IMG/VR virus record: IMGVR_UViG_3300044461_000032
Source: a virus
Direction: 5' to 3' (one strand)
Length of the DNA stretch: 54,260 bases
The notes under the pieces are model-generated. The model was not told the DNA's origin, did no database searches, and worked only from the letters and a program-made list of their open reading frames with translations. How positions within the stretch are numbered: position 1 is the first letter of the stretch; each line of letters opens with the position of its first letter. The position numbers and the translations under genes were made by a program. Of this stretch, positions 1,828 to 54,260 are shown piece after piece.

Positions 1828-4274
1828 CAGCGGGCCATCGCCTTCTCGAGCACCGTCACCGTCCCCCGCTGGTTCAGCCGGAACTCCCACTGCAACCGGG
1901 GCACAATGTCACGCGCGAAGACCGCGTCCATCCCTTCCGCGTTGAGGGCGTTGGCGTGGATGTTGACCGTGTAGTGCTGGTTGAGCGTAGGCGAGCTACC
2001 CGTGGTGGCGCTCGTGCGCGGGACGATGTCTTCCCCGAAGCGCCCCCCGTGCAGAATGGCGGGCTGCACGACGCCAGGCGGGACGAAACCGCCTGTGTTG
2101 AAGCCCTTCACGTTCTTGAGGCCCCCGGCCTGCAGGGCACTCACGAACGCCGCCTGTGCCGGGTCGTATTCGCCCTTGCTGTCGGCCCGGTAGACTTCCC
2201 CGATGAGGCGCTCCGCGACGGGGCCTGAAATCTTCGCCTTCTGCGAGGCCTTGACGGCCGCCTCAAACTGCGTGCCCCCGAACATGTCCTGGAGTTGCCC
2301 GAAGAACCGATCCCGCCGCGGGCTGATGTCGGTCGCCTCTTCCCCGCCGCGGAAGAGTCCGCCCTTCCAGATCGCCACCCCGAGGGCCGCCCCGCCGAGC
2401 GCCGCCAGCGTGAACGGATTCGTCGCGAAGGCTGCCAGGCCCGCGCTCCCGGCGCCACCCGCCGACGCTGCGCCGCCCAGCGCCGTCCCGGAGACGCCCC
2501 CGGCAATCGCGTTGCCGATACTCTGCGCCAGCTTCGCGCTCGACAGGCTCTTGATGAGTCCGCCGAGGAATTGCTTGGTGAAGAACGACAGGATTTCGCC
2601 AAGGATATTGGCGACCCCGGCCTGAATGGACTTCCAGATGTCGAGGTAGCCTTCCTTGAAACTCTTGGCCCCGAGCATCATCTGGGCGAAGGATCCCGCG
2701 ATGGCCGTGTCCATCATCTGAATCGAGCGGGTCATGCCTTCGGTCAGCGCCGTCCAGACGTGGCTGAGTTCCTCCGCGCGTTTCTTCCCGATGCCAGGGA
2801 CGGTCGCCTCCATCGCGCCCGCGACCCGCTGTGAGGGCAGGAAGATTTGATCGCCGACCGGCGACAGGCCCGCGAGCGGGTCGCCCGTGACCCGGCTCTG
2901 CCGCATCAGTTCCGCGTCGTGCTCGAAGAACGCCTGCCCTGTCAGGTTCGCCATCTCGCTATTCAGGCGCGCGTAGGATTCGGCGAGCTTCTCCGTTTCC
3001 GTCTTAGCACTCTTCGTGGTGCCCGTGCTCTTACTTAAGAGCGACTCGTAGTCGACGAGCGATCCAGAGTTCTTCCGGATTTCCACGTCGGTGCGGTTCA
3101 GCGCGGCCGCGCTGGCGTCCGCGGCATCCCGGAACCATTGGGCCTGATTGCGGACGGCTTCGATGCTGATGCCCAAAGCCTTCCACAGCATGGCCTCACC
3201 GGGAATCTTGGACAGCAGCCCCATGACCCCCGCGAGGCCGTCCAGGAGCCCCGCCGTGCCGCGCCGGATGAAGTTCACGAACTGGTCGAACAGGCGCCCG
3301 AGGAAGTTGTAGGACTCGGCAGCCCACACCTTGAGCTGCATCTGGAACTTCCCGATGGCGTCCCCGGCCTGGTCGAGCGCCCGCACCGTCTTGTCCGACA
3401 TCACCGGGGCCGCGTTGCCTAACTGCTCGAAGTTCGCGATCAACGTCGGGAGGATGGCCGCACCCGTGCGCCCGAACAGGTCGATGGCGATGGCGGCGCG
3501 GGCGGCCGGGTCCGGGATCTTGGCGATCTCGGTCGCGATCATGGACAGTTGCTCAAACGGCGACGCCGCCTTCAGGGCCGCGAGGTTGATGCCGAGCACC
3601 TTGACGGCATTGACCGCGCTCTTGTCGCCGCTGATGAGATTGTTCTGGAGCCGCGAGATGGCGCCCGTGAGTTCGTCAAGGCTATTGCCGGACTGGCCCG
3701 CAATAAACTGCAATTTCTGGACTTCCGTCGTGGTGAGGCCGGTGCGATCCGCGACCTTGACCAACTGATCGGCCGTGTTCAGGAGCGCGCGCCCGAACGC
3801 CACGACGCTGCTCACGCCGAGCGAGATCCCAAACGCGCCCAGGACGGTGCTGACTTGCGTCAGCGACATCCCAAAGCGCTGCGTCTCGGTGGTCGCCCCG
3901 GCCGTCGCCTTCTGCAAGGCCACCATCGCCGGCGGGGCCTTCTGGCCGAGCGCGGTATATTTCGCGATGGCGTCCGTGAGCGTGCGATTGGCCTTCGCCT
4001 GTTCGGCTTCGGTGAGCTTGGTGGCCCCGCCGATCTTCGTGATGGCCGTGACGAGGTTGTTGGCGGAATAGAGCAGTTTGTCGCCGCTGAACGCCTTGAC
4101 CATCCGCTCGGCTTGTGGCGTGAGCTTCTGGACTTCGACCCCGACTTGCTTGGTGTTCTTCTCGACGAGCTTGAGGGTGGAGTTGGCCTTCGCCATCCCC
4201 GTGTCAAATTGTGCTGTGTCAGCGGTCAGCATCGCCCGCAGGACGCCGACGACGGCGTTATTGGCCGACGCCAT
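1827..4274 (-). CDS. Tail tape measure protein, 815 aa
   Basis: Long Ala/Leu/Gln-rich helical protein directly downstream of the G/T chaperones. Contains a Gly-rich hydrophobic segment (..GGAASAGGAGSAGLAAFATNPFTLAALGGAALGVAIW..). Confidence 0.9.
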   Translation of the reverse strand: MASANNAVVGVLRAMLTADTAQFDTGMAKANSTLKLVEKNTKQVGVEVQKLTPQAERMVKAFSGDKLLYSANNLVTAITKIGGATKLTEAEQAKANRTLTDAIAKYTALGQKAPPAMVALQKATAGATTETQRFGMSLTQVSTVLGAFGISLGVSSVVAFGRALLNTADQLVKVADRTGLTTTEVQKLQFIAGQSGNSLDELTGAISRLQNNLISGDKSAVNAVKVLGINLAALKAASPFEQLSMIATEIAKIPDPAARAAIAIDLFGRTGAAILPTLIANFEQLGNAAPVMSDKTVRALDQAGDAIGKFQMQLKVWAAESYNFLGRLFDQFVNFIRRGTAGLLDGLAGVMGLLSKIPGEAMLWKALGISIEAVRNQAQWFRDAADASAAALNRTDVEIRKNSGSLVDYESLLSKSTGTTKSAKTETEKLAESYARLNSEMANLTGQAFFEHDAELMRQSRVTGDPLAGLSPVGDQIFLPSQRVAGAMEATVPGIGKKRAEELSHVWTALTEGMTRSIQMMDTAIAGSFAQMMLGAKSFKEGYLDIWKSIQAGVANILGEILSFFTKQFLGGLIKSLSSAKLAQSIGNAIAGGVSGTALGGAASAGGAGSAGLAAFATNPFTLAALGGAALGVAIWKGGLFRGGEEATDISPRRDRFFGQLQDMFGGTQFEAAVKASQKAKISGPVAERLIGEVYRADSKGEYDPAQAAFVSALQAGGLKNVKGFNTGGFVPPGVVQPAILHGGRFGEDIVPRTSATTGSSPTLNQHYTVNIHANALNAEGMDAVFARDIVPRLQWEFRLNQRGTVTVLEKAMAR

Positions 4275-4774
4275 CAGTGCACGACCTTCAGCGGGATCTG
4301 GTAACGCTCACTCAGGAAATGCAACATCTGTCGTTGTGCCTCACGCGACGTCCGCCGTGGTCCGTCACGCTGCTCAAACATCGTCTTGAGGTCCGTCAGT
4401 TTACCGACCTGTGCTTGTGCGCTCAGTGCCGCCACGGTCCACGCGAGCGCGAGATCGCGGTTCTGTTCGTCCTTCCACCTCTGCTCCGCCGCTTCGCTTT
4501 CCCGGTAGTATTCCCGCGGCGTCATGCGCCAAAACTGTTCCTGGCTCAGACCGATCCGACGAGCTCCGACGATGAGGGCTCGCCAGTTCCAACCTGAGCC
4601 TCCTGAGGGCGCGTCTCGCTCTGTGCCCCCTCCGGCTGTGGTGGTTGATTGAGTTCGATGGAACGATTCACCCAATCCGACACGACACCGATCCCACCAG
4701 CACGCTCGATCCATCGGCTCGCGTCCTTGAGCGTCTTGATCTCGGCCGCGTGTTCGTCTTGCAATAAACACCAC
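4274..4774 (-). CDS. -1 frame extension ORF (gpT-like part of a predicted G-T frameshift product). Only about 4274..4630 is likely to be translated
   Basis: It overlaps the 3' end of the G ORF in the -1 frame. The conserved-looking part (..GLSQEQFWRMTPREYY..) has no ATG/GTG/TTG of its own. Its stop overlaps the tape-measure ATG. Confidence 0.55.
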   Translation of the reverse strand: MVFIARRTRGRDQDAQGREPMDRACWWDRCRVGLGESFHRTQSTTTAGGGTERDAPSGGSGWNWRALIVGARRIGLSQEQFWRMTPREYYRESEAAEQRWKDEQNRDLALAWTVAALSAQAQVGKLTDLKTMFEQRDGPRRTSREAQRQMLHFLSERYQIPLKVVH

Positions 4775-4953
4775 ACGACGGCACGCATCCCAGAGAACAT
4801 GCCCTGTCGCATAACAGTCTCGATGTCCGTGCCCGGGTGTCCGAGGCCGGCCATCAACGCTTCAAATTCCGCGACGGCATCGAAGGCCGGGCGCAAGGTG
4901 TAAGGCTTGCCCCCGACCACGACGCCGACGTCGCCCTTTTCCTGATTCGCCAT
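4546..4953 (-). CDS. Tail assembly chaperone (gpG-like, GTA g10-like), 135 aa
   Basis: N-terminus ..VVVGGKPYTLRPAFDAVAEFEAL.. Sits between the major tail and tape-measure genes. Confidence 0.75.
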   Translation of the reverse strand: MANQEKGDVGVVVGGKPYTLRPAFDAVAEFEALMAGLGHPGTDIETVMRQGMFSGMRAVVWCLLQDEHAAEIKTLKDASRWIERAGGIGVVSDWVNRSIELNQPPQPEGAQSETRPQEAQVGTGEPSSSELVGSV

Positions 4954-7829: not shown

Positions 7830-8404
7830 GCGGCCCTCCAGAACACCATGGCATTCGACCCATACCACGGCGTGCGCGGCGAACAGCGCAGCCACCGACG
7901 GCGCAGCTCCGACGACACCGCCTCCGCATACGTCAACCCATGCACCCGGAACAAGCCGCGCCAGAACGACGGCTCCGCGCAATGCACATGCCCCGGCCCG
8001 CGCTGCCCCGGTCCCGCCGCGGTAAATAGAATCCGGCCGAGCGGATCCATGTGCCGCACGAGCGTGTCGACGAGCGTCTCGGCATACTCCGCATCCAGAT
8101 GTTCCGCGACTTCCCAACAGATGACCCAATCGAAGCGCCGCTTCAGGTCCACCGGCTCGCGGAGGTCCGCCCGCACGAGCACGTCGATGCCGTCCGGCAC
8201 CGCCAAGTCGATGCCCATCGCTGCGATTTCATGCGCCAGCGCCCACCCGACATGCACGCCTTCGGCGCAGCCGACGTCCAGGAGGCTCGCGGGCGTCCCG
8301 AGCACCTCACAGGCCGTTTCCAGGCACCGGAGCGAATGCGGATGCGTCCACCGTCGCGCGACGTGGTAGGACGACCCAGGCGTGTAAAGGTCAGGCCGCG
8401 ACAT
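7826..8404 (-). CDS. Class I SAM-dependent methyltransferase, 192 aa
   Basis: LLDVGCAEG matches SAM motif I. It is followed by an acidic loop (ADLREPVD) and ..WVICWEVAEHL.. Confidence 0.7.
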   Translation of the reverse strand: MSRPDLYTPGSSYHVARRWTHPHSLRCLETACEVLGTPASLLDVGCAEGVHVGWALAHEIAAMGIDLAVPDGIDVLVRADLREPVDLKRRFDWVICWEVAEHLDAEYAETLVDTLVRHMDPLGRILFTAAGPGQRGPGHVHCAEPSFWRGLFRVHGLTYAEAVSSELRRRWLRCSPRTPWYGSNAMVFWRAA

Positions 8405-9371
8405 GCCGACTCCCACCCCCGATGAGTGCCACAGAGAACGGCGCCCGCAACGTCGTGGCGATCTGGTCGATGACTTGCCGGTGGTCCTTCCGGAAGTTCG
8501 GCCGCGCATAGAACGTCTGCGCCCGCACCCCGACGAACGGCGCCAGATAGGCGAAGCCGCCATACGTCCCGACGTAGCCCTTGGCCCGGGCAATGACGGC
8601 CGTCTGCGTCTCCAGGTTTGTTACGGGGTCCATCGCCACACGATGCACGCGCGGATGTGGCGCGACGTCAAACTCCCCGTGGTCGTCATACTGCGTCCCG
8701 CTGTGCAGGAGCACCACATCGGATGACGCGGTCATCGCCCGCACGATGTCATTCACCATCTGCGTGTGCACGGAGTTCTTCGAGCACGCCATCGAGTTGT
8801 AGAACTTCGCCGCGACATACGACGTCGGCAAGTCGAGCCCATGCGGAGGCACCGCGAACCGCTTCGGCACGGTCATGTGCCTGTAGAGGTGCGGGAGTTT
8901 GCGCCGCCAGAACGGCCGGAAGAGCGCATACATCAGCGACGGGTGCAGGAGTCGAGTGTCAGACAGTCCCGCCGCTTTCTCGACATGCCGCACAATGTCG
9001 CGATCGAAGGTCGAGACGATGTGCTGCTTGGTGGACGGTCGCCCGTGCCGCACACCGCTACACGCCGCCTGCTCGGCCATGCGCTTGTCGTTCTTCTGCC
9101 GATAGCGATCGGGCGGATAGAACTGGAACACGTCGACATAGTTGGGACTGATGTCGGCATACCAGGAGCGGCACCCCCCGCGCGAGACAATCCACAGATC
9201 CTCGCGGTGGAGATGCCCGTGCGCGACCGCCCACCGAAGGAACGGAATCCAGTAGAGCAGCTCGAAGCCCACTTCGCTCAGCCACGGACCCACAATGATC
9301 GGGCCGCGCGTGCGTCCGAGCGCTGCTACCGCGTCGCGGGTGTCCTGCACGAGCTGGAGTTCTGGCGTCAT
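8391..9371 (-). CDS. Putative GT-B-like glycosyltransferase, 326 aa
   Basis: ATG at 9371 (ATGA overlap). C-terminal ..AVIARAKGYVGTYGGFAYLAPFVGVRAQTFY resembles the donor-binding half of GT9-type enzymes. The similarity is weak. Confidence 0.35.
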   Translation of the reverse strand: MTPELQLVQDTRDAVAALGRTRGPIIVGPWLSEVGFELLYWIPFLRWAVAHGHLHREDLWIVSRGGCRSWYADISPNYVDVFQFYPPDRYRQKNDKRMAEQAACSGVRHGRPSTKQHIVSTFDRDIVRHVEKAAGLSDTRLLHPSLMYALFRPFWRRKLPHLYRHMTVPKRFAVPPHGLDLPTSYVAAKFYNSMACSKNSVHTQMVNDIVRAMTASSDVVLLHSGTQYDDHGEFDVAPHPRVHRVAMDPVTNLETQTAVIARAKGYVGTYGGFAYLAPFVGVRAQTFYARPNFRKDHRQVIDQIATTLRAPFSVALIGGGSRHVAA

Positions 9372-38363: not shown

Positions 38364-39032
38364 TCACGCCAGCACCGCCGCGAGGGTGCCCCGCAAGTTT
38401 GTCATCGTCAGCAGGGCCGCGACTTCCTGATTCACTTCCGTGAGGAAGGCTCTCGCCTCGCGGGCATACTCCGCGACGTCCGTCTCGTCACGGGGGACGC
38501 GCACGTAGAACACTTGCAACGCCTCCGGGAACCGATCATCGAAGGAGAGAAAGTCGTAGGCCTGCGCCCCGGTGATCCACAGCTCGTGCAGCATTTGCGC
38601 GCGGTGCTCGGCCGGAAACTTACCGCCGCGTAGGTAGCGAATGTGCGTGCTCGACTTCGGGCACTTGAAGCTCACGAGCGTCTCGAAGTCCCCGAGGTGG
38701 CCGTCCAGTGAGCACCCGGCGCGTAAGGACGTGTGCGCCAGGAACCCCGTAGACGTCACCAGATGGCCCGTGAGGGCTTCGTAGGCCGCTCTGGCGTCGG
38801 GCTCCTTGTCGATGCCGCGCTGCATCGCTGCGTTGATGTAGCCGTCTTCCTGGGGCATCCCCGTCAGGATTTCGGCCACGAGCTGCATCCGGTAGTCACG
38901 ACGGGCCGCGGCCTCCCCCGTCTTGATCTTGGCTAGGATGTCCGCCGCCCGCGATCCCGTGGCTCGTCCGGCGCGAGCGGCGTGCCACTCGGGGGTCCGC
39001 TGCTCGAATTCCAGGACAGTAAAGGGCCTCAT
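38364..39032 (-). CDS. YqaJ-like (lambda-Exo-type) recombination exonuclease, 222 aa
   Basis: ATG at 39032 (ATGA overlap). ..RTPEWHAARAGRATGSRAADI.., ..CSLDGH.., ..VSFKCP.. Confidence 0.7.
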   Translation of the reverse strand: MRPFTVLEFEQRTPEWHAARAGRATGSRAADILAKIKTGEAAARRDYRMQLVAEILTGMPQEDGYINAAMQRGIDKEPDARAAYEALTGHLVTSTGFLAHTSLRAGCSLDGHLGDFETLVSFKCPKSSTHIRYLRGGKFPAEHRAQMLHELWITGAQAYDFLSFDDRFPEALQVFYVRVPRDETDVAEYAREARAFLTEVNQEVAALLTMTNLRGTLAAVLA

Positions 39033-39820
39033 TTGGCTTTCACCCGAATCGCGCACGTCTTGATCGCCGCCAGCCGCTTCGGATCAGTGCTCGCCAGATG
39101 CTTTCGGTAGGACGGCTGAGACTCATTCCACGCGTCAGAGAACGCCGGCATTCCACTATCGGCTACGCCTTCCAGGATGGCCAGCCAGGCGTCATAGCCC
39201 TCTGGGGCCTCCGGTGCCTTCTTCGGCACGGCCTTCTCCGCGTCGTCATCTTCCCCGCGCGTGACGATACAGAGTAGATCCTTACAGGTGTATCTTTTTC
39301 CGTAGGACACCGCCGACGCGAGCGCCTGGATCGGATTCTTGCTCCCGCTCTGGTCCGCCGCCGACAGAAACTCGCTTTGCCGCGCGTGGCCCTCCCGGTG
39401 CGTCAGGATGCCGATCACCTTGACCGACTTGTCGGTCGGCCACTCGGTGCGGAAACTCAGGGAGAAGCCATGCCGGGAGAGCACCGGCCGCACGGGTTCG
39501 ATGATGTCTTCGAGCGGGGCATAGGTCGCCTTGTCCGTGGAGGCCTTCTCGATGATGGTCGGGATGTCGGACTGCAACGCAGAGAACGCCACGTTGAACG
39601 CCTGCTCGGCCTGATGCCGCAAGATGCGCTCTTGCAGCTCGATGATCTTTTCCAGCTTCGCGACGTCCACCTGCGGATTGGCCGCGAGGCGCTCGATCAC
39701 GGAGGCGAGCCCGCCGTCCGGGGCAGTCGGCACCAGGGCCACGTCCTTGACGCCGGTCTGTGGCGGCTCGCGACGATAAATGTTGTCGAACTCGAGTGGT
39801 GGGTCTGTTACACTTGCCAT
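39029..39820 (-). CDS. ERF-family single-strand annealing protein, 263 aa
   Basis: ATG at 39820 preceded by AAAGGA. ..AFNVAFSALQSDIPTIIEKASTDKATYAPLEDIIEPVRPVLSRHGFSL.. Confidence 0.7.
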   Translation of the reverse strand: MASVTDPPLEFDNIYRREPPQTGVKDVALVPTAPDGGLASVIERLAANPQVDVAKLEKIIELQERILRHQAEQAFNVAFSALQSDIPTIIEKASTDKATYAPLEDIIEPVRPVLSRHGFSLSFRTEWPTDKSVKVIGILTHREGHARQSEFLSAADQSGSKNPIQALASAVSYGKRYTCKDLLCIVTRGEDDDAEKAVPKKAPEAPEGYDAWLAILEGVADSGMPAFSDAWNESQPSYRKHLASTDPKRLAAIKTCAIRVKAK

Positions 39821-39841
39821 GTTCTGGGGTGTCCTTTCTGT

Positions 39842-39869
39842 GGCCCGCGCTTGTCCCGCGGGCCTTTTT
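39842..39869. terminator. Perfect 8-bp GC hairpin with a T-run on the plus strand (possible bidirectional terminator)
   Basis: GGCCCGCG-cttgtcc-CGCGGGCC-TTTTT. Lies 9 nt after the reconstructed native stop of gene 40644..41036. Confidence 0.45.
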
Positions 39870-39887
39870 CTTGTCATACCCGTCCCG

Positions 39888-39895
39888 TTTCGTCG
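39888..39895. repeat. Target-site duplication TTTCGTCG (left copy, IS element 1)
   Basis: Identical 8-mer at 40685..40692, immediately outside the inverted repeats. Confidence 0.85.
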
Positions 39896-40684
39896 GGCAA
39901 TAATATACTTGACTGACCGTGATGTTTCTGCGATGATTCACTCATGGTCAGCCGCTCCGAACCGCAAACCCTTCAGCAAGCGATTCTGTTCTTCTCGGAC
40001 TACGCCAATTGCCATCGCGCCGTGATGGAGATCCGCTGGCCGGATGGTGTCGTCAAGTGCCCGCGTTGCAACTCCGAGCGCGTCTCCTACTTGGCAAATG
40101 CCCGCGTGTGGAAGTGCTACGAAGGCCATCCGCTGGCGAAGTTCTCGCTCAAGGTCGGCACCGTGTTTGAGGATTCCCCACTGCCGTTGCAGAAGTGGCT
40201 CCCGGCCGTCTGGTTGCTCACCAATTGCAAGAACGGGATCAGCAGCTACGAACTGGGCCGCGCCCTTGGTGTCACCCAGAAGACCGCATGGTTCATGCTG
40301 TCGCGTCTCCGTCTCGCGCTCCAGGCCAAGCACACTAACAGGATGAGCGGGCATGTTGAGGCCGATGAAACCTTCATCGGTGGCAAGGCCCGCAACATGC
40401 ACGCAGCGAAGCGGAAGCGCCTCGGGATCTCGCAGTCGCGTTCGATGGTCGGCAAGGTGGCCGTGATGGGCCTGCTGGAACGGCACGGTGAAGGGAGCCG
40501 CGTCCGTACCGAGGTCATCCGCAACCGCCGAAAGCATCAACTTGAGGACGTGGTCACTGACCATGTCGAGGCTGGCTCGATCCTCTACACCGATGCACTC
40601 CGCTCCTATGACCGCATGGCCTCGCGTGGTTACGTGCATCAGGTCATCGACCACGCCGAGGCGTACGTTTAGTATATTGCTGCC
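39896..40684 (+). mobile_element. IS1595-family element, truncated/non-autonomous (789 bp)
   Basis: Inverted repeats GGCAATAATATACTTGAC (left) and GGCAGCAATATACTAAAC (right, reverse complement). Flanked by an 8-bp duplication. Carries a single truncated transposase ORF. Confidence 0.8.
39944..40672 (+). pseudogene. IS1595-family transposase lacking the C-terminal third of the DDE domain (242 aa, versus 321 aa in the neighbouring copy)
   Basis: Zn-ribbon ..CPRCNSERVSY..WKC.., ..EADETFIGG.., ..YTDALRSY.. The ORF ends at ..HAEAYV with its stop inside the right inverted repeat. The neighbouring copy continues ..DGEVHTNGLENFW.. Confidence 0.7.
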
Positions 40685-41036
40685 TTTCGTCGTAGAGGAT
40701 AAACGCCTCCGGGCACCACTCGCGCGCCCGCTGCTCGGCCGCTTCGGTGTAGGCCCGCAGTTCCTCGCGGCTCAGTTCCGTGATCGATGACTTCCCCTCC
40801 GGCAGACATTCGGCCTTGAGCATCGTGTGAGCCTCGTGCTTGTGGTAACCCGTCTCCTGCGAGAACGGATCCACGACGTGCCCCCAGTAGTGCTTGATGT
40901 CCCCGTAGGTATAGGCCTCGTCCTCGGGCTCGATCCGGATCTTGAGCGCGACCCCGTCGCCCCACTTCTTCGCGAACTTCTTTCGCTGCGTGACGTAGCG
41001 CGGCCGGTCCACGACGTGAATGTCGGCGTCCCGCAC
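40644..41036 (-). CDS. Hypothetical phage protein bracketed by the two IS elements. Its 3' end was rewritten by the insertion of IS element 1
   Basis: The candidate native start is GTG at 41036. The reading frame now runs into the IS1 inverted repeat (..ILYDERQQYTKRTPRRGR*). Removing IS1 and one duplication copy restores ..ILYDETGRV*. Confidence 0.4.
   Translation of the reverse strand: MRDADIHVVDRPRYVTQRKKFAKKWGDGVALKIRIEPEDEAYTYGDIKHYWGHVVDPFSQETGYHKHEAHTMLKAECLPEGKSSITELSREELRAYTEAAEQRAREWCPEAFILYDERQQYTKRTPRRGR
40685..40692. repeat. Target-site duplication TTTCGTCG (right copy, IS element 1)
   Basis: See 39888..39895. Confidence 0.85.
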
Positions 41037-41053
41037 GACGGCTGAGACGACTA

Positions 41054-41061
41054 GGGCGTTC
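41054..41061. repeat. Target-site duplication GGGCGTTC (left copy, IS element 2)
   Basis: Identical 8-mer at 43677..43684. Confidence 0.85.
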
Positions 41062-41109
41062 GGTAACAATATACTTGACACATCACGCCGTTCTCGGTAG
41101 ACTCTCTTT

Positions 41110-42075
41110 ATGGCTACTGAGAACGGCACCCCAGACACCCTCGTCGGCGCAATTACCTACTTCTCGGACATCGACGTAGCGACTCAGTTTGTCGCGGGTC
41201 TTCGCTGGCCGGATGGCGTGACCTGCCCGCACTGTGAATCGCAGGACTGCGCGTTCGTCTCGTCCCGTCGTATCTGGCAGTGCAAGGGGTGCCGTAAGCA
41301 GTTCTCCGTCAAGGTGGGCAGCATTTTCGAGGACAGCCCGATTCCGCTCTCGAAGTGGTTGCCCGCAATGTGGTTGCTCGTGAACTGCAAGAACGGCGTC
41401 AGCAGCTACGAGATCGCCCGTGACCTTGGCGTTACCCAGAAAACCGCGTGGTTCATGATGCACCGCCTGCGCATGGCGATCATGGCGAAGTCCTTCAACA
41501 AGTTCGGCGGCAACGTCGAAGTGGACGAAACCTACATTGGCGGCAAGGCTCGCAACATGCACGTCGGCAAGCGGAAACGTCTGGGCATGTCGCAGCATCG
41601 TTCGATGCTCGGAAAGACTGCCGTGCTCGGATTGCTGGAACGCCACGGGAAGGACGGAGCCAGCCAGATCCGCACCGCCGTTGTCGAAGGTCGCAAGAAG
41701 GGCCATCTTCAGCCCCACGTCAAAGCGAACATCGAAGCTGGTGCGACTCTCCACACCGATGCCCACTTCTCGTATCAGGGCCTCAGCAGCCAGTACGTCC
41801 ACAACGTCATCGATCACGCCGAGTCGTACGTCGATGGCGAAGTCCACACCAACGGACTGGAAAACTTCTGGAGCCTTCTCAAGCGTTCCATCAAGGGCAC
41901 CTACGTGTCGGTCGAACCGTTTCATCTGTTCCGTTACCTAGACGAACAGGTGTATCGCTTCAACAACCGTAAGCAGACCGACGCTATGAGGTTTGTAGAA
42001 GCGTGCGCGTCAGTGTTCGGCAAGCGCCTCACCTATACCGTCCTCACCGGCAAGGACGTCCCGCAAACGTGCTGA
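41110..42075 (+). CDS. IS1595-family (ISXO2-like) DDE transposase, 321 aa
   Basis: ..CPHCESQDCAFV..WQCKGC.., ..EVDETYIGG.., ..HTDAHFSY.., ..NGLENFWSLLKR.. Confidence 0.8.
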   Translation: MATENGTPDTLVGAITYFSDIDVATQFVAGLRWPDGVTCPHCESQDCAFVSSRRIWQCKGCRKQFSVKVGSIFEDSPIPLSKWLPAMWLLVNCKNGVSSYEIARDLGVTQKTAWFMMHRLRMAIMAKSFNKFGGNVEVDETYIGGKARNMHVGKRKRLGMSQHRSMLGKTAVLGLLERHGKDGASQIRTAVVEGRKKGHLQPHVKANIEAGATLHTDAHFSYQGLSSQYVHNVIDHAESYVDGEVHTNGLENFWSLLKRSIKGTYVSVEPFHLFRYLDEQVYRFNNRKQTDAMRFVEACASVFGKRLTYTVLTGKDVPQTC

Positions 42076-42117
42076 GAAAGCAGCGCCGCAACTCCCGCGC
42101 GGCAGAAAGAAGCGCCG

Positions 42118-42267
42118 ATGAAAGTCCACGTACCAGGCGACACGCCAATGGACCGCCTCAGAAATTTCACAAAGCGGGTGGTCGCAGTATCACGAGAGGA
42201 AATAGAGAAGGAATCCAAGCGGTACAGCGCACGGAAACAGCGGAGAAAACCAAAGGCGCGAAAGTAG
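42118..42267 (+). CDS. Small basic ORF inside IS element 2, 49 aa (below the ORF-track cutoff)
   Basis: MKVHVPGDTPMDRLRNFTKRVVAVSREEIEKESKRYSARKQRRKPKARK, with a purine-rich stretch upstream. Confidence 0.3.
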   Translation: MKVHVPGDTPMDRLRNFTKRVVAVSREEIEKESKRYSARKQRRKPKARK

Positions 42268-42305
42268 AACGCAATTTCCGCGACAAGCAGCCAGAGCCAC
42301 GTGGC

Positions 42306-42704
42306 ATCAAGGTCGAACTGTTCTGTATTTGCAATCACGCGTTCGCTGACTCCAGAAAACAACCTTGCCTTGTTGGTATCATCGACGTCCTTCAGGTCCG
42401 CGGGTTTCCTGCTTCCCATGCGATCTTGTCCGTCGCGGCCATTCTCCGGACTACACCACACGCTGTCCTCACGTTGAATATTCAGTTCGGGGCGTCTATC
42501 GCCGACCTTATGCGTGAGTCTGGCGCGTTCAAGATTGAAGCGAACGTGAACGGATTGGTGTTTGTTCCGTTTCACATGCCTCAACTTCGATTCGACGAAG
42601 CCGGAGAGTATGTCGCGCGACTGATTGACCTCAACGACGACCACTACATCATGGCCACGAAATACATGCGCGTCATAGGCCCTCCGTCGAAGCCAGCGGC
42701 TTAG
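42306..42704 (+). CDS. Passenger ORF, ~132 aa beta-rich protein. No canonical start codon lies next to its protein-like N-terminus
   Basis: The C-terminal 130 aa of track ORF 42003..42704 look protein-like (IKVELFCICNHAF..GIIDVLQVRGFPASH..). The upstream part of that ORF is low-complexity and overlaps the transposase. Confidence 0.35.
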   Translation: MKVELFCICNHAFADSRKQPCLVGIIDVLQVRGFPASHAILSVAAILRTTPHAVLTLNIQFGASIADLMRESGAFKIEANVNGLVFVPFHMPQLRFDEAGEYVARLIDLNDDHYIMATKYMRVIGPPSKPAA

Positions 42705-43636
42705 TTGTAGAACTTGTCGGCGGTGTTCCACAACGGATAGTCCAGGCCTAAATAGCAGAGCGGGCCTTTCGGCATCACGTAGACCTCACGATTGTGCGCA
42801 CGTCGCGGGATGTGTTGGCTCGTTACGAACTTCCAGAGCACGTGCCGGTTCACGCCAGCCCATCTGCCGTCGTCATCTGGGCGAACGATAGCGCGGGCAG
42901 AATGTCGCATGTCGATCTTGCCGTCACGAATACAGTCGAGTGTGGTCTTCGCATGTTCGTAGGCGATGAAGTCGCTAGCCTGGAATGGAAGGCAGTAGTG
43001 AATGTCGCCCTGATCGTCGGTCCATCGTTTCTTACAGAACACGGGATCAACGGGTAGCTTCAGGGCTGCTAACTGTTTGCGAAAGTCGGCCTGCTCGTTA
43101 TCTCCCTTCTCGAAGAAGAACAAGAGCGGCTCACGAAGTTTGCTACTCTCTCGCCACTCCATCGTTAGCATGATCGCCGACAGCGCGGCCATGCCGTACG
43201 GCGTCCCAAGGGTTTCTTCAATACGAAATCGTTCGTTGAACCAATCGTACGTGTGAAGGTCCACGGTGATCCCGACGGAACGATGGGTGTGATCGTTGAT
43301 GGCAGTGGAGATGGCCTTAATAAAGGCCTGTCTGGTAGGTTCCCATTTCTTGTCTTTCCACTTAGCGAACTCACCTTCGCACTGGGCGAAATGGCTCATA
43401 TGGAATTCGGCGATACCGAACTCCTTTAGCACCGTCGGCCAGACTTTCTCGAAATCGGCCCATTGATCCTCATGGGCGATATAGCCGCTGACTGAAAGCA
43501 CACTAATGCCCGGATCCCTCGCGGACCCGCTAGCGTCGAAGTAGGCTTTAAGCACAGCTATCCAACATCGTTGCGACCCGAGACAACCCCTTGCAATACT
43601 CTTGAATAGCGAACCGCGAGGTGATCGTTTAGTCAC
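42701..43636 (-). CDS. Passenger protein, tentatively DUF3800-like, 311 aa
   Basis: GTG at 43636. ..LKAYFDASGSARDPGISVLSVSGYIAHEDQWADFEKVWPTVLKEFGIAEFHMSHF.. Visibly lower GC than the phage backbone. Confidence 0.45.
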   Translation of the reverse strand: MTKRSPRGSLFKSIARGCLGSQRCWIAVLKAYFDASGSARDPGISVLSVSGYIAHEDQWADFEKVWPTVLKEFGIAEFHMSHFAQCEGEFAKWKDKKWEPTRQAFIKAISTAINDHTHRSVGITVDLHTYDWFNERFRIEETLGTPYGMAALSAIMLTMEWRESSKLREPLLFFFEKGDNEQADFRKQLAALKLPVDPVFCKKRWTDDQGDIHYCLPFQASDFIAYEHAKTTLDCIRDGKIDMRHSARAIVRPDDDGRWAGVNRHVLWKFVTSQHIPRRAHNREVYVMPKGPLCYLGLDYPLWNTADKFYN

Positions 43637-43676
43637 GATACACCCCCGGTCGTGATGTGTCTAGTATATTGTTGCC

Positions 43677-43684
43677 GGGCGTTC
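43677..43684. repeat. Target-site duplication GGGCGTTC (right copy, IS element 2)
   Basis: See 41054..41061. It overlaps the stop codon of gene 43683..44024. Confidence 0.85.
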
Positions 43685-44024
43685 ACCGCTCCCCCTTCAC
43701 GAGTGATGTGCTCTGTCCGTAGTCCGACTGCCGATCGGTGGCCCCCAGGCGCGGCGGCGCCGTTCGGGATCGGTATGGGCCTCGCGCCCGAGCCGGCGGT
43801 CCTGCCGTCTCAACTGGATATTGCGTAGGAGGCACCCAATGCGAGAGTCGTTCGATCTCGCTGTCCACTTCGCGATGTAGTCGGCCAGCATCTGCATAGA
43901 GAAAGTCCTCCGGATAGGGGTCACGCTCGCCGCGCGCGAAGGCCCATCCCACGATCCGATCGACGATTGCGAACACCATCCAGGTCACGAGCAACACGAG
44001 CACGAACGCGGCGAGAAACGTCAT
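43683..44024 (-). CDS. Membrane-anchored protein (N-terminal TM helix), 113 aa
   Basis: MTFLAAFVLVLLVTWMVFAIV.. Confidence 0.5.
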   Translation of the reverse strand: MTFLAAFVLVLLVTWMVFAIVDRIVGWAFARGERDPYPEDFLYADAGRLHREVDSEIERLSHWVPPTQYPVETAGPPARARGPYRSRTAPPRLGATDRQSDYGQSTSLVKGER

Positions 44025-54133: not shown

Positions 54134-54260
54134 GTTCCCGGTATTTGGACTAACCCGGAAATAGTAGGTCGTGCCTGGGACCGTCACGATCTCAAGCGGC
54201 TTGTTGCGCCGATAGTTGTCAGTCTCCGCAACCCCGAGCACATGCACCACGCCGGCCGCG
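54134..54260. repeat. Second copy of the 127-bp terminal direct repeat
   Basis: Identical to 1..127. Confidence 0.95.

Follow-up and report, generated by a model that had tools for sequence, protein, structure and literature searches.

Which element interrupts the early region of this soil phage, and what could the genes that it carries do there? The stretch in question is IMG/VR virus record IMGVR_UViG_3300044461_000032 (54,260 nt in full, hereafter the window), in which the original prediction had described a 2,615-bp IS1595-family unit with inverted repeats and passenger genes. We found that 41062..43676 (IS-B) is an IS1595-family transporter insertion sequence (IS), inserted by transposition into the phage recombination region and loaded with a DUF3800-like gene, for a predicted nuclease, and a DUF6941 gene. 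We propose, with a probability of roughly 0.6, that the two genes form a conflict module –for defence, exclusion or a toxin-like action– that transposition brought into the phage.

At the structural level, the unit came out as predicted, with its inverted repeats and with the perfect 8-bp duplication at both ends that was said to overlap the stop codon of a neighbouring gene (Table 1). A repeat search returned inverted arms at 41061-41087 and 43651-43677 (27 nt, 93% complementary), and the 18-nt end motif GGYAAYAATATACTTGAC, allowing up to three mismatches, occurs four times in the window vs. zero in 100 shuffles. The transposase is full-length, as had been claimed: it covers positions 3-153 of the 153 in the Pfam profile DDE_Tnp_IS1595 (PF12762, 7.9e-40), has an N-terminal Zn_ribbon_IS1595 domain (PF12760, 2.5e-12), and scores 185.6 bits (cut-off 75) with the NCBIfam model IS1595 (NF033547, 1.1e-54). 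Its identity to the transposases of Terriglobia, Acidobacteria, and Gemmatimonadaceae metagenome-assembled genomes (MAGs) is 74-78%, the best match (78%) being in a Terriglobia MAG, and the closest annotated plasmid transposases are ~37% identical and labelled just "IS1595 family". The ends, GGnAAnAATAT, presumably resemble the consensus of the ISNwi1 subgroup, which we take as a lead. Altogether, IS-B shows the zinc-ribbon DDE transposase, terminal inverted repeats, and 8-bp duplication that define the IS1595 family. It is also a transporter IS, with the DUF6941 and DUF3800-like genes lying between the transposase and the right inverted repeat and no second bounding IS. The passenger DNA is indeed of lower GC content: 54.6% in the cargo and 55.8% in the whole of IS-B vs. 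63.3% in the rest of the genome.

IS-B sits exactly in the GTGA where the stop and the start of two early genes overlap; the Erf/exonuclease recombination genes follow shortly downstream. The right copy of GGGCGTTC overlaps the TGA stop (43685-43683, minus strand) of the phage ORF 43683..44027 (ORF, open reading frame) and, before the insertion, also overlapped the GTG start of the downstream gene. Rebuilt in silico, the empty site reads ...AAGGGGGAGCG GTGA ACGCCC...

For the passenger gene next to the right end, the guess of a DUF3800-like protein stood at the superfamily level. Its ORF extends to 43636 (311-aa form, 42701..43636, minus strand), although we prefer the 284-aa form, and it carries the motif AYFDASGS. 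A profile search reached 6,993 representative clusters, 202 of them below 1e-30, and 24 of 55 profile-detected or sampled relatives match Pfam DUF3800 (best 1.4e-09); one cargo homologue (locus L019) scores 35.1 bits. Close relatives number eight among 5.8 billion clusters. The AlphaFold2 model (predicted local distance difference test, pLDDT, of 84) has its best Foldseek matches in the archaeal RNase HII structures 2dff, 1io2, and 1eke (E ~1e-4). The 55 relatives all have D7, D195, and E200, and nearly all have E149 and D152; the C-terminal QxxD motif is kept (FQASDF, with the invariant D195). We class the window nuclease as a divergent branch of the DUF3800 superfamily, outside the membership that Pfam defines. 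The leader of its gene (43540-43640, minus strand) showed no excess structure (z = 0.04) and no conservation with that of a related element, L002, and PHROGs gave no match for the window cargo.

DUF3800 (PF12686) has been described as an RNase H2-like nuclease with D-E and QxxD motifs that acts as the effector of type VII retrons (PMC7736814); Cas12a2/a3 and type VI-F CRISPR systems are reported to have it as an accessory (PMC10910872, PMC12669027). The protein of IS-B resembles this family in its RNase HII-like predicted fold, the N-terminal Asp of the first strand, the C-terminal QxxD, and the mobile or defence contexts. However, IS-B has no reverse transcriptase, no non-coding RNA, and no Cas gene, and the partner is DUF6941. 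A type VII retron was rejected, because IS-B holds only the transposase, a small ORF, DUF6941, and the DUF3800-like gene, and PADLOC gave no retron match. Rfam returned no match for the whole window at gathering thresholds, and between 39800 and 43800, with E up to 5, it found none of the DUF3800-associated RNA motifs and two chance-level matches.

The other passenger had been noticed as a ~130-aa beta-rich ORF that begins at ATC without a nearby start codon, and we reached the same picture. It is a DUF6941 protein, scoring 41.4 bits with Pfam PF22091 (cut-off 27) and covering positions 2-110 of the 125-position profile. Its AlphaFold2 model (pLDDT 92) is an all-beta sandwich that Foldseek matches to RhoGDI, the Ig-like domain of AlkC, and FnIII-like domains, and it is also like uncharacterised phage proteins (TM-score up to 0.75). 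The word-indexed protein search gave ten relatives. In the window, the first codon of the domain is ATC 42306, with GTG 42069 as the closest in-frame ATG/GTG/TTG upstream. Homologues outside ISs have a Met start exactly at the domain boundary, and the L002 homologue (54% identical) has an ATG and a basic N-terminal extension, of which the RDFRDKQP segment is kept in the open frame of the window. This frame is open for ~100 codons upstream of the domain (42003-42310), where it overlaps the small ORF in the -1 frame; no canonical slippery heptamer for a -1 frameshift from the small ORF into DUF6941 was found. From the alignment with L002, the ATG-bearing segment appears to have been deleted in the window, and the protein is probably still made, from a start that may be GTG 42069, a non-canonical codon, or a frameshift from the small ORF.

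Do the two genes belong together? In every locus with both called (the window, L002, L006, L007, L015, L016, and L017) they are convergent, with overlapping 3' ends: by 4 nt in the window and L002, 35 nt in L007, 68 nt in L006 and L016, and 71 nt in L015 and L017. The transposase-plus-cargo unit does occur elsewhere, since L002 is a complete related IS1595 element (~3.1 kb, duplication GCTTCAGC) with the same pair, and a third IS1595-linked copy is P0004. The cargo homologues are intact in other places, L002 included, which does not fit the passengers being junk. Moreover, the pair occurs without an IS1595 transposase (L006, L007, L014-L017). It lies with resolvase, ArdC, and Nmad3 genes in L007, in an element or prophage with an integrase in L015, and with type IV secretion (conjugation) genes in L017. 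On the metagenome contig L016, the pair (603-1908) adjoins a 934-aa SMC/AAA ATPase (2101-4905, minus strand) matching the Ppl defence protein (PADLOC Ppl, 9.4e-36). On the prophage-like contig L014 it lies between tail-fibre-like genes and an integrase (8001-9260), beside a T5orf172/MUG113 gene; here the DUF6941 gene was uncalled and found by tblastn, and it may be N-terminally truncated. The pair is undescribed so far: a full-text literature search returned no paper on DUF6941 or on its pairing with DUF3800-like genes.

Is the carriage of such cargo peculiar to the phage copy? A transposase search in one genome per species gave 80 loci, hosted mainly by Acidobacteriota and Nitrospira, with some Gemmatimonadota and Chloroflexota. 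Fifty-one complete elements, including those of the window and L002, were delimited by script, with ends like GGyAAyAATATACTTGAC and perfect 8-bp duplications; the 50 besides IS-B come from other genomes and one metagenome contig. Since they measure 1,968-5,911 bp, none is without cargo (passenger DNA of 0.9-4.8 kb per element); thus, cargo carriage is common to the clade (51/51) and not peculiar to the phage copy. A DUF3800-like gene is the commonest cargo (19/51), and the other 32 elements are without it. Transposases that are 80-86% identical accompany DUF3800-like proteins that are ~20% identical (L062/L066, L073/L078/L088, and other pairs); by rank, nuclease and transposase identity show practically no correlation (Spearman -0.05). 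On these figures, we rejected the co-evolution of nuclease and transposase. Comparison of the sequences suggests that the DUF3800-like cargo is swapped or is diversifying far faster than the backbone.

Sister elements carry an AIPR/AbiU protein (1.3e-36), a RelA_SpoT protein matching the candidate defence system PDC-S33 (2.8e-121), SocA_Panacea, PIN (two), PIN_10/DUF5615, DUF433, and HicB proteins, a methylase-nuclease fusion (N6_N4_Mtase and Mrr_cat), and a seven-member Rx4H (HEPN-like) family, its motif recognised by eye and without a Pfam match. About 100 cargo ORFs in the clade are orphans, and the identified families are mostly of toxin-antitoxin or defence types.

The clade also has a component of its own. 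The 49-aa basic ORF listed among the passengers by the original prediction is present and conserved, but it is not ordinary cargo: an iterated hidden Markov model search found it in 49 of the 51 complete elements, on either strand and whatever the cargo. The protein (35-65 aa across the clade) has the motif TPFERF..., VPK, and then a Lys/Arg-rich tail, and no Pfam family matches it. It is fused to the DUF3800-like protein in L075, and its ORF lies directly 3' of the DUF3800-like gene in L047, L059, L062, and L066. In L001, from a Gemmatimonadaceae MAG, the identical 26-nt left end and the small ORF beside the transposase accompany a different cargo. We consider the small basic protein a candidate transposition accessory or regulator.

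Transporter ISs (tIS) of the IS1595 family have been known since Siguier, Gagnevin and Chandler 2009, as cited in PMC3129680 and PMC7986276. They share with IS-B a single zinc-ribbon DDE transposase, short inverted repeats, an 8-bp duplication, and unrelated passenger genes. What sets IS-B apart is its place in a phage genome and, possibly, two features of its clade: the small basic ORF of nearly all members, and identified cargo that is mostly of toxin-antitoxin or defence type.

IS-B is not the only member of the clade on viral contigs. In IMG/VR, 63 stretches (L098-L160) have the exact 18-nt end motif –the window's own contig is not among them– and 11 of these are complete with perfect duplications; the small ORF is present in ten of the 11 and a DUF3800-like cargo in three. 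Viral capture of the clade recurs, given these 11 complete elements, and some of the contigs may be prophages with host flanks.

IS-B came in by the cut-and-insert reaction of a zinc-ribbon DDE transposase, which recognises the 26-bp inverted repeats and left the 8-bp duplication. How would the conflict module work? The nuclease would be the effector that cuts nucleic acid, and the DUF6941 beta-sandwich would bind it as a regulator or sensor. A left-end promoter would drive the transposase, the small ORF, and DUF6941, and a right-end promoter the nuclease. The inverted repeats contain -35-like hexamers (TTGACA, TAGACA or TTGACT), followed 17 nt further in by a -10-like box, all reading inward: 41075-41103 (plus strand), 43663-43635 (minus strand), and 39909-39937 (plus strand). 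These ends may double as promoters. Besides, the nuclease gene is co-oriented with the phage early genes, so early read-through from the phage would express it and run antisense to the transposase.

We favour a conflict module because of the predicted fold, the conserved acidic residues, the conservation of the partner, the contexts of the pair, and the cargo of sister elements. For the phage, the module would most likely be an accessory weapon, aimed at co-infecting phages, at other mobile elements, or at systems of the host; from the context, a defence or counter-defence role for the cargo is plausible. A lower-GC block between phage genes with promoter-like sites of its own is also reminiscent of phage morons and superinfection-exclusion genes, as are the pair homologues at the tail-fibre/integrase junction of the L014 prophage. 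However, this block came in on a recognisable transposon that left duplications, and not through illegitimate recombination, and its insertion disrupts the expression signals of the neighbouring gene.

Table 1. Features of the window in and around the two insertions (positions are those of the window)
Feature	Position	Strand	Remarks
IS-B, complete IS1595-family transporter IS	41062..43676	+	2,615 bp; inverted repeats and perfect 8-bp duplication
Target-site duplication of IS-B, left copy, GGGCGTTC	41054..41061		identical to right copy; abuts left inverted repeat
Left inverted repeat of IS-B, GGTAACAATATACTTGACACATCACG	41062..41087	+	26 nt; inward -35-like TTGACA
IS1595-family transposase	41110..42075	+	321 aa; full length, intact
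Small basic protein	42118..42267	+	49 aa; conserved in L001 and L002
DUF6941 protein, Ig-like beta-sandwich	42306..42704	+	~130 aa; frame open from 42003
DUF3800-superfamily protein, RNase HII-like predicted fold	42701..43555	-	284 aa from GTG 43555
Right inverted repeat of IS-B, GGCAACAATATACTAGACACATCACG	43651..43676	-	24/26 vs. left inverted repeat; inward -35-like TAGACA toward DUF3800-like gene
Target-site duplication of IS-B, right copy, GGGCGTTC	43677..43684		abuts right inverted repeat
IS-A, internally deleted non-autonomous IS of the same clade	39896..40683	+	788 bp
Truncated IS-A transposase	39944..40672	+	242 aa; DDE_Tnp_IS1595 profile positions 2-107 of 153
Phage gene hit at both ends	40684..41061	-	originally 130 codons (in silico removal of both ISs)
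Erf-like annealing protein	39029..39877		phage gene
Exonuclease	38364..39056		phage gene

IS-B had been called the only clearly foreign DNA in the genome, and this was wrong: a second, deleted element of the same IS1595 clade, IS-A, lies 370 bp away. IS-A has the left inverted repeat GGCAATAATATACTTGAC, a short right-end remnant (...TAGTATATTGCTGCC), and its own perfect 8-bp duplication TTTCGTCG (39888-39895 and 40684-40691). Aligned to IS-B, it has an internal deletion that runs from mid-transposase to the last 16-18 bp, with the junction right after ...HAEAYV, and the last third of the DDE domain is gone. The two elements are different members of one clade, because their transposases are 57% identical, and IS-A was inserted independently of IS-B. 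A composite transposon IS-A...IS-B was rejected: each element has a duplication of its own (TTTCGTCG and GGGCGTTC, respectively), the transposases share 57% identity, and the outer flanks are not alike. IS-A is similar to miniature inverted-repeat transposable elements (MITEs) and other deleted ISs, since it keeps the termini and the duplication, has lost the catalytic C-terminus and the cargo, and would be mobile only in trans. Unlike MITE-like elements, it still encodes a 242-aa fragment, and its possible helper IS-B is 57% identical, which makes cross-mobilisation uncertain.

Both insertions hit the same phage gene. Before them, this 130-codon gene began, with AAGGGGGAG ahead of it, at a GTG that formed a GTGA overlap with the TGA stop of its upstream neighbour; the rebuilt gene has a strong ribosome-binding site and a normal gene end. 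IS-B took away the GTG start and the ribosome-binding site (40684-41061 with 43684-43686), and gene callers now place the start at codons within the end of IS-B. IS-A exchanged the last four codons for 12 IS-derived ones. The disrupted gene has no family match in Pfam or PHROGs and no relatives in viral contigs. That a single small gene of a 54-kb genome was hit twice is striking; target preference, dispensability of the gene, chance, or selection for silencing may lie behind it. The empty-site sequences of the two insertions are GACGACTAGGGCGTTCACCGCTCC and CCGTTTCGTCGTAGAGG; the exact 32-nt empty-site junctions of both were absent from the metagenome collection, and that of IS-B also from the viral collection. 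As a side observation, the plus strand has a GC-rich hairpin followed by a T-run at 39842-39874, antisense to the phage genes; it lies directly left of IS-A, where erf and the disrupted gene leave a gap.

The phage itself is known from its complete genome: the window has an exact 127-bp direct terminal repeat (1-127 = 54134-54260) and thus represents a genome of ~54.1 kb, circularly assembled or terminally redundant. Its identity as a phage comes from the portal, capsid-protease fusion, tape-measure, Erf-like, and exonuclease genes, and almost all phage genes are on the minus strand. The same sequence is found as a 54,123-bp Joint Genome Institute (JGI) contig in six samples (100% identical). 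An 8.5-kb contig from another sample covers IS-B and both its junctions, again at 100% identity, so that the identical genome was assembled from at least seven samples, 3300009678 and 3300027362 among them. Megablast searches with the element and with 25 kb of the phage against 50,697 GenBank phage records gave no match, and related phages, with Erf only ~50% identical, are too distant to reveal the ancestral site. Apart from the region of the insertions, a 761-aa phage protein (34014-36299) combines a helicase and a DNA methyltransferase (PHROG helicase 3e-64, methyltransferase 2e-37; Helicase_C and N6_N4_Mtase in the JGI annotation).

Several observations weigh against a conflict module. For the nuclease, the DUF3800-like guess did not hold at the Pfam cut-off: the 311-aa form scores 15.6 bits against a cut-off of 21, and the 284-aa form has no Pfam DUF3800 match. 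The TM-scores of the RNase HII matches are modest (0.36-0.52), and D-A replaces the D-E motif of the family (A or C in the place of E; AYFDASG). The PADLOC-DB 2.0 models matched neither the window nuclease and DUF6941 nor the homologues P0005, P0006, and P0008. At the level of the pair, the convergent gene order is atypical for toxin-antitoxin or defence operons, the promoter matches come from consensus scans alone, and the pair may be half-disabled, as the window copy of DUF6941 has no canonical start. No IS-free variant of the phage was found in the metagenome and viral collections, and this phage may be a dead-end or defective variant. Finally, the association with mobile elements would be expected of defence and of plain addiction alike.

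A bolder account goes further than the conflict module. The clade would be a dedicated shuttle for immune or toxin cassettes, with a constant backbone (transposase, small basic protein, and ends that bear promoters) and fast swapping of cargo, through which phages acquire weapons; the pair would be a new anti-phage or exclusion system, and the double hit would silence the phage gene. We hold this to be tentative and rather unlikely as a whole, and the same goes for the idea, within it, that the silenced gene would be one that, e.g., triggers host defence.

Alternatively, the pair could be an addiction module for the IS, with the nuclease as the toxin, DUF6941 or the small basic protein as the antidote, and no anti-phage role; a carrier that lost the element would be killed or harmed, and the IS would thus persist in genomes. 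This would suit the classical toxin-antitoxin parts of the sister elements (PIN, HicB, SocA_Panacea, DUF5615/DUF433) and the small ORF being fused to, or directly 3' of, DUF3800-like genes. However, the pair is also found away from any IS1595 transposase, and sister cargo includes the abortive-infection and defence proteins AbiU and PDC-S33. We regard pure addiction as improbable, and the boundary between toxin-antitoxin and defence is blurred, which makes it overlap with the conflict module.

The cargo could also be a neutral or decaying hitchhiker, the phage copy a dead end, DUF6941 a pseudogene, and the disabled gene dispensable. The missing canonical start of DUF6941, whose start region appears deleted by comparison with L002, points in this direction, as does the decay of IS-A. 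Moreover, transposable elements are rare in phage genomes, which typically carry few or none, according to PMC9600943 (citing Leclercq and Cordaux 2011). Nevertheless, neither cargo ORF is interrupted, the residues that are invariant in each family are retained, and the N-terminal extension of DUF6941 (RNFRDKQP) is conserved with L002 at the protein level. The identical genome comes from at least seven samples, and the clade recurs in viral contigs, some of them with DUF3800-like cargo. We give this explanation a low probability, although DUF6941 alone may be decayed.

It is highly improbable that the DUF3800-like nuclease is an accessory transposition enzyme, e.g. one that, like TnsA of Tn7, cuts the second strand. 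No other passenger is as common in the clade, and its RNase H-like fold is also that of transposases, but 32 of the 51 complete elements have perfect duplications without it, the identities (~20% vs. 80-86%) indicate swapping and not co-evolution, and the pair occurs elsewhere without a transposase.

An artefact –phage and bacterial IS sequences assembled into a chimera, or native phage DNA resembling an IS– deserves next to no credence despite the metagenomic source and a contig (L009) that ends within IS-A, as assemblers break at repeats: both elements have perfect 8-bp duplications, their removal restores the GTGA overlap, a strong ribosome-binding site, and a normal gene end, the distant related phages with Erf and exonuclease are without the IS and cargo genes, and a chimera is very unlikely because independent JGI contigs are 100% identical across both IS-B junctions.

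The setting of IS-B is unusual: one complete phage has two IS1595-clade elements, and a predicted nuclease module rides on one of the two. An active module would mean that conflict genes have a concrete way of passing between bacterial chromosomes and viruses, in a vehicle of 2-3 kb. The comparison of the clade is perhaps more useful than the single copy. This abundant and well-delimited IS clade of soil phyla seems to pick up genes for toxin-antitoxin and defence functions in a systematic way; thus, its unassigned cargo –the DUF3800-like variants, the HEPN-like family, DUF6941, and the orphans– is a pre-packaged list of candidate defence genes.

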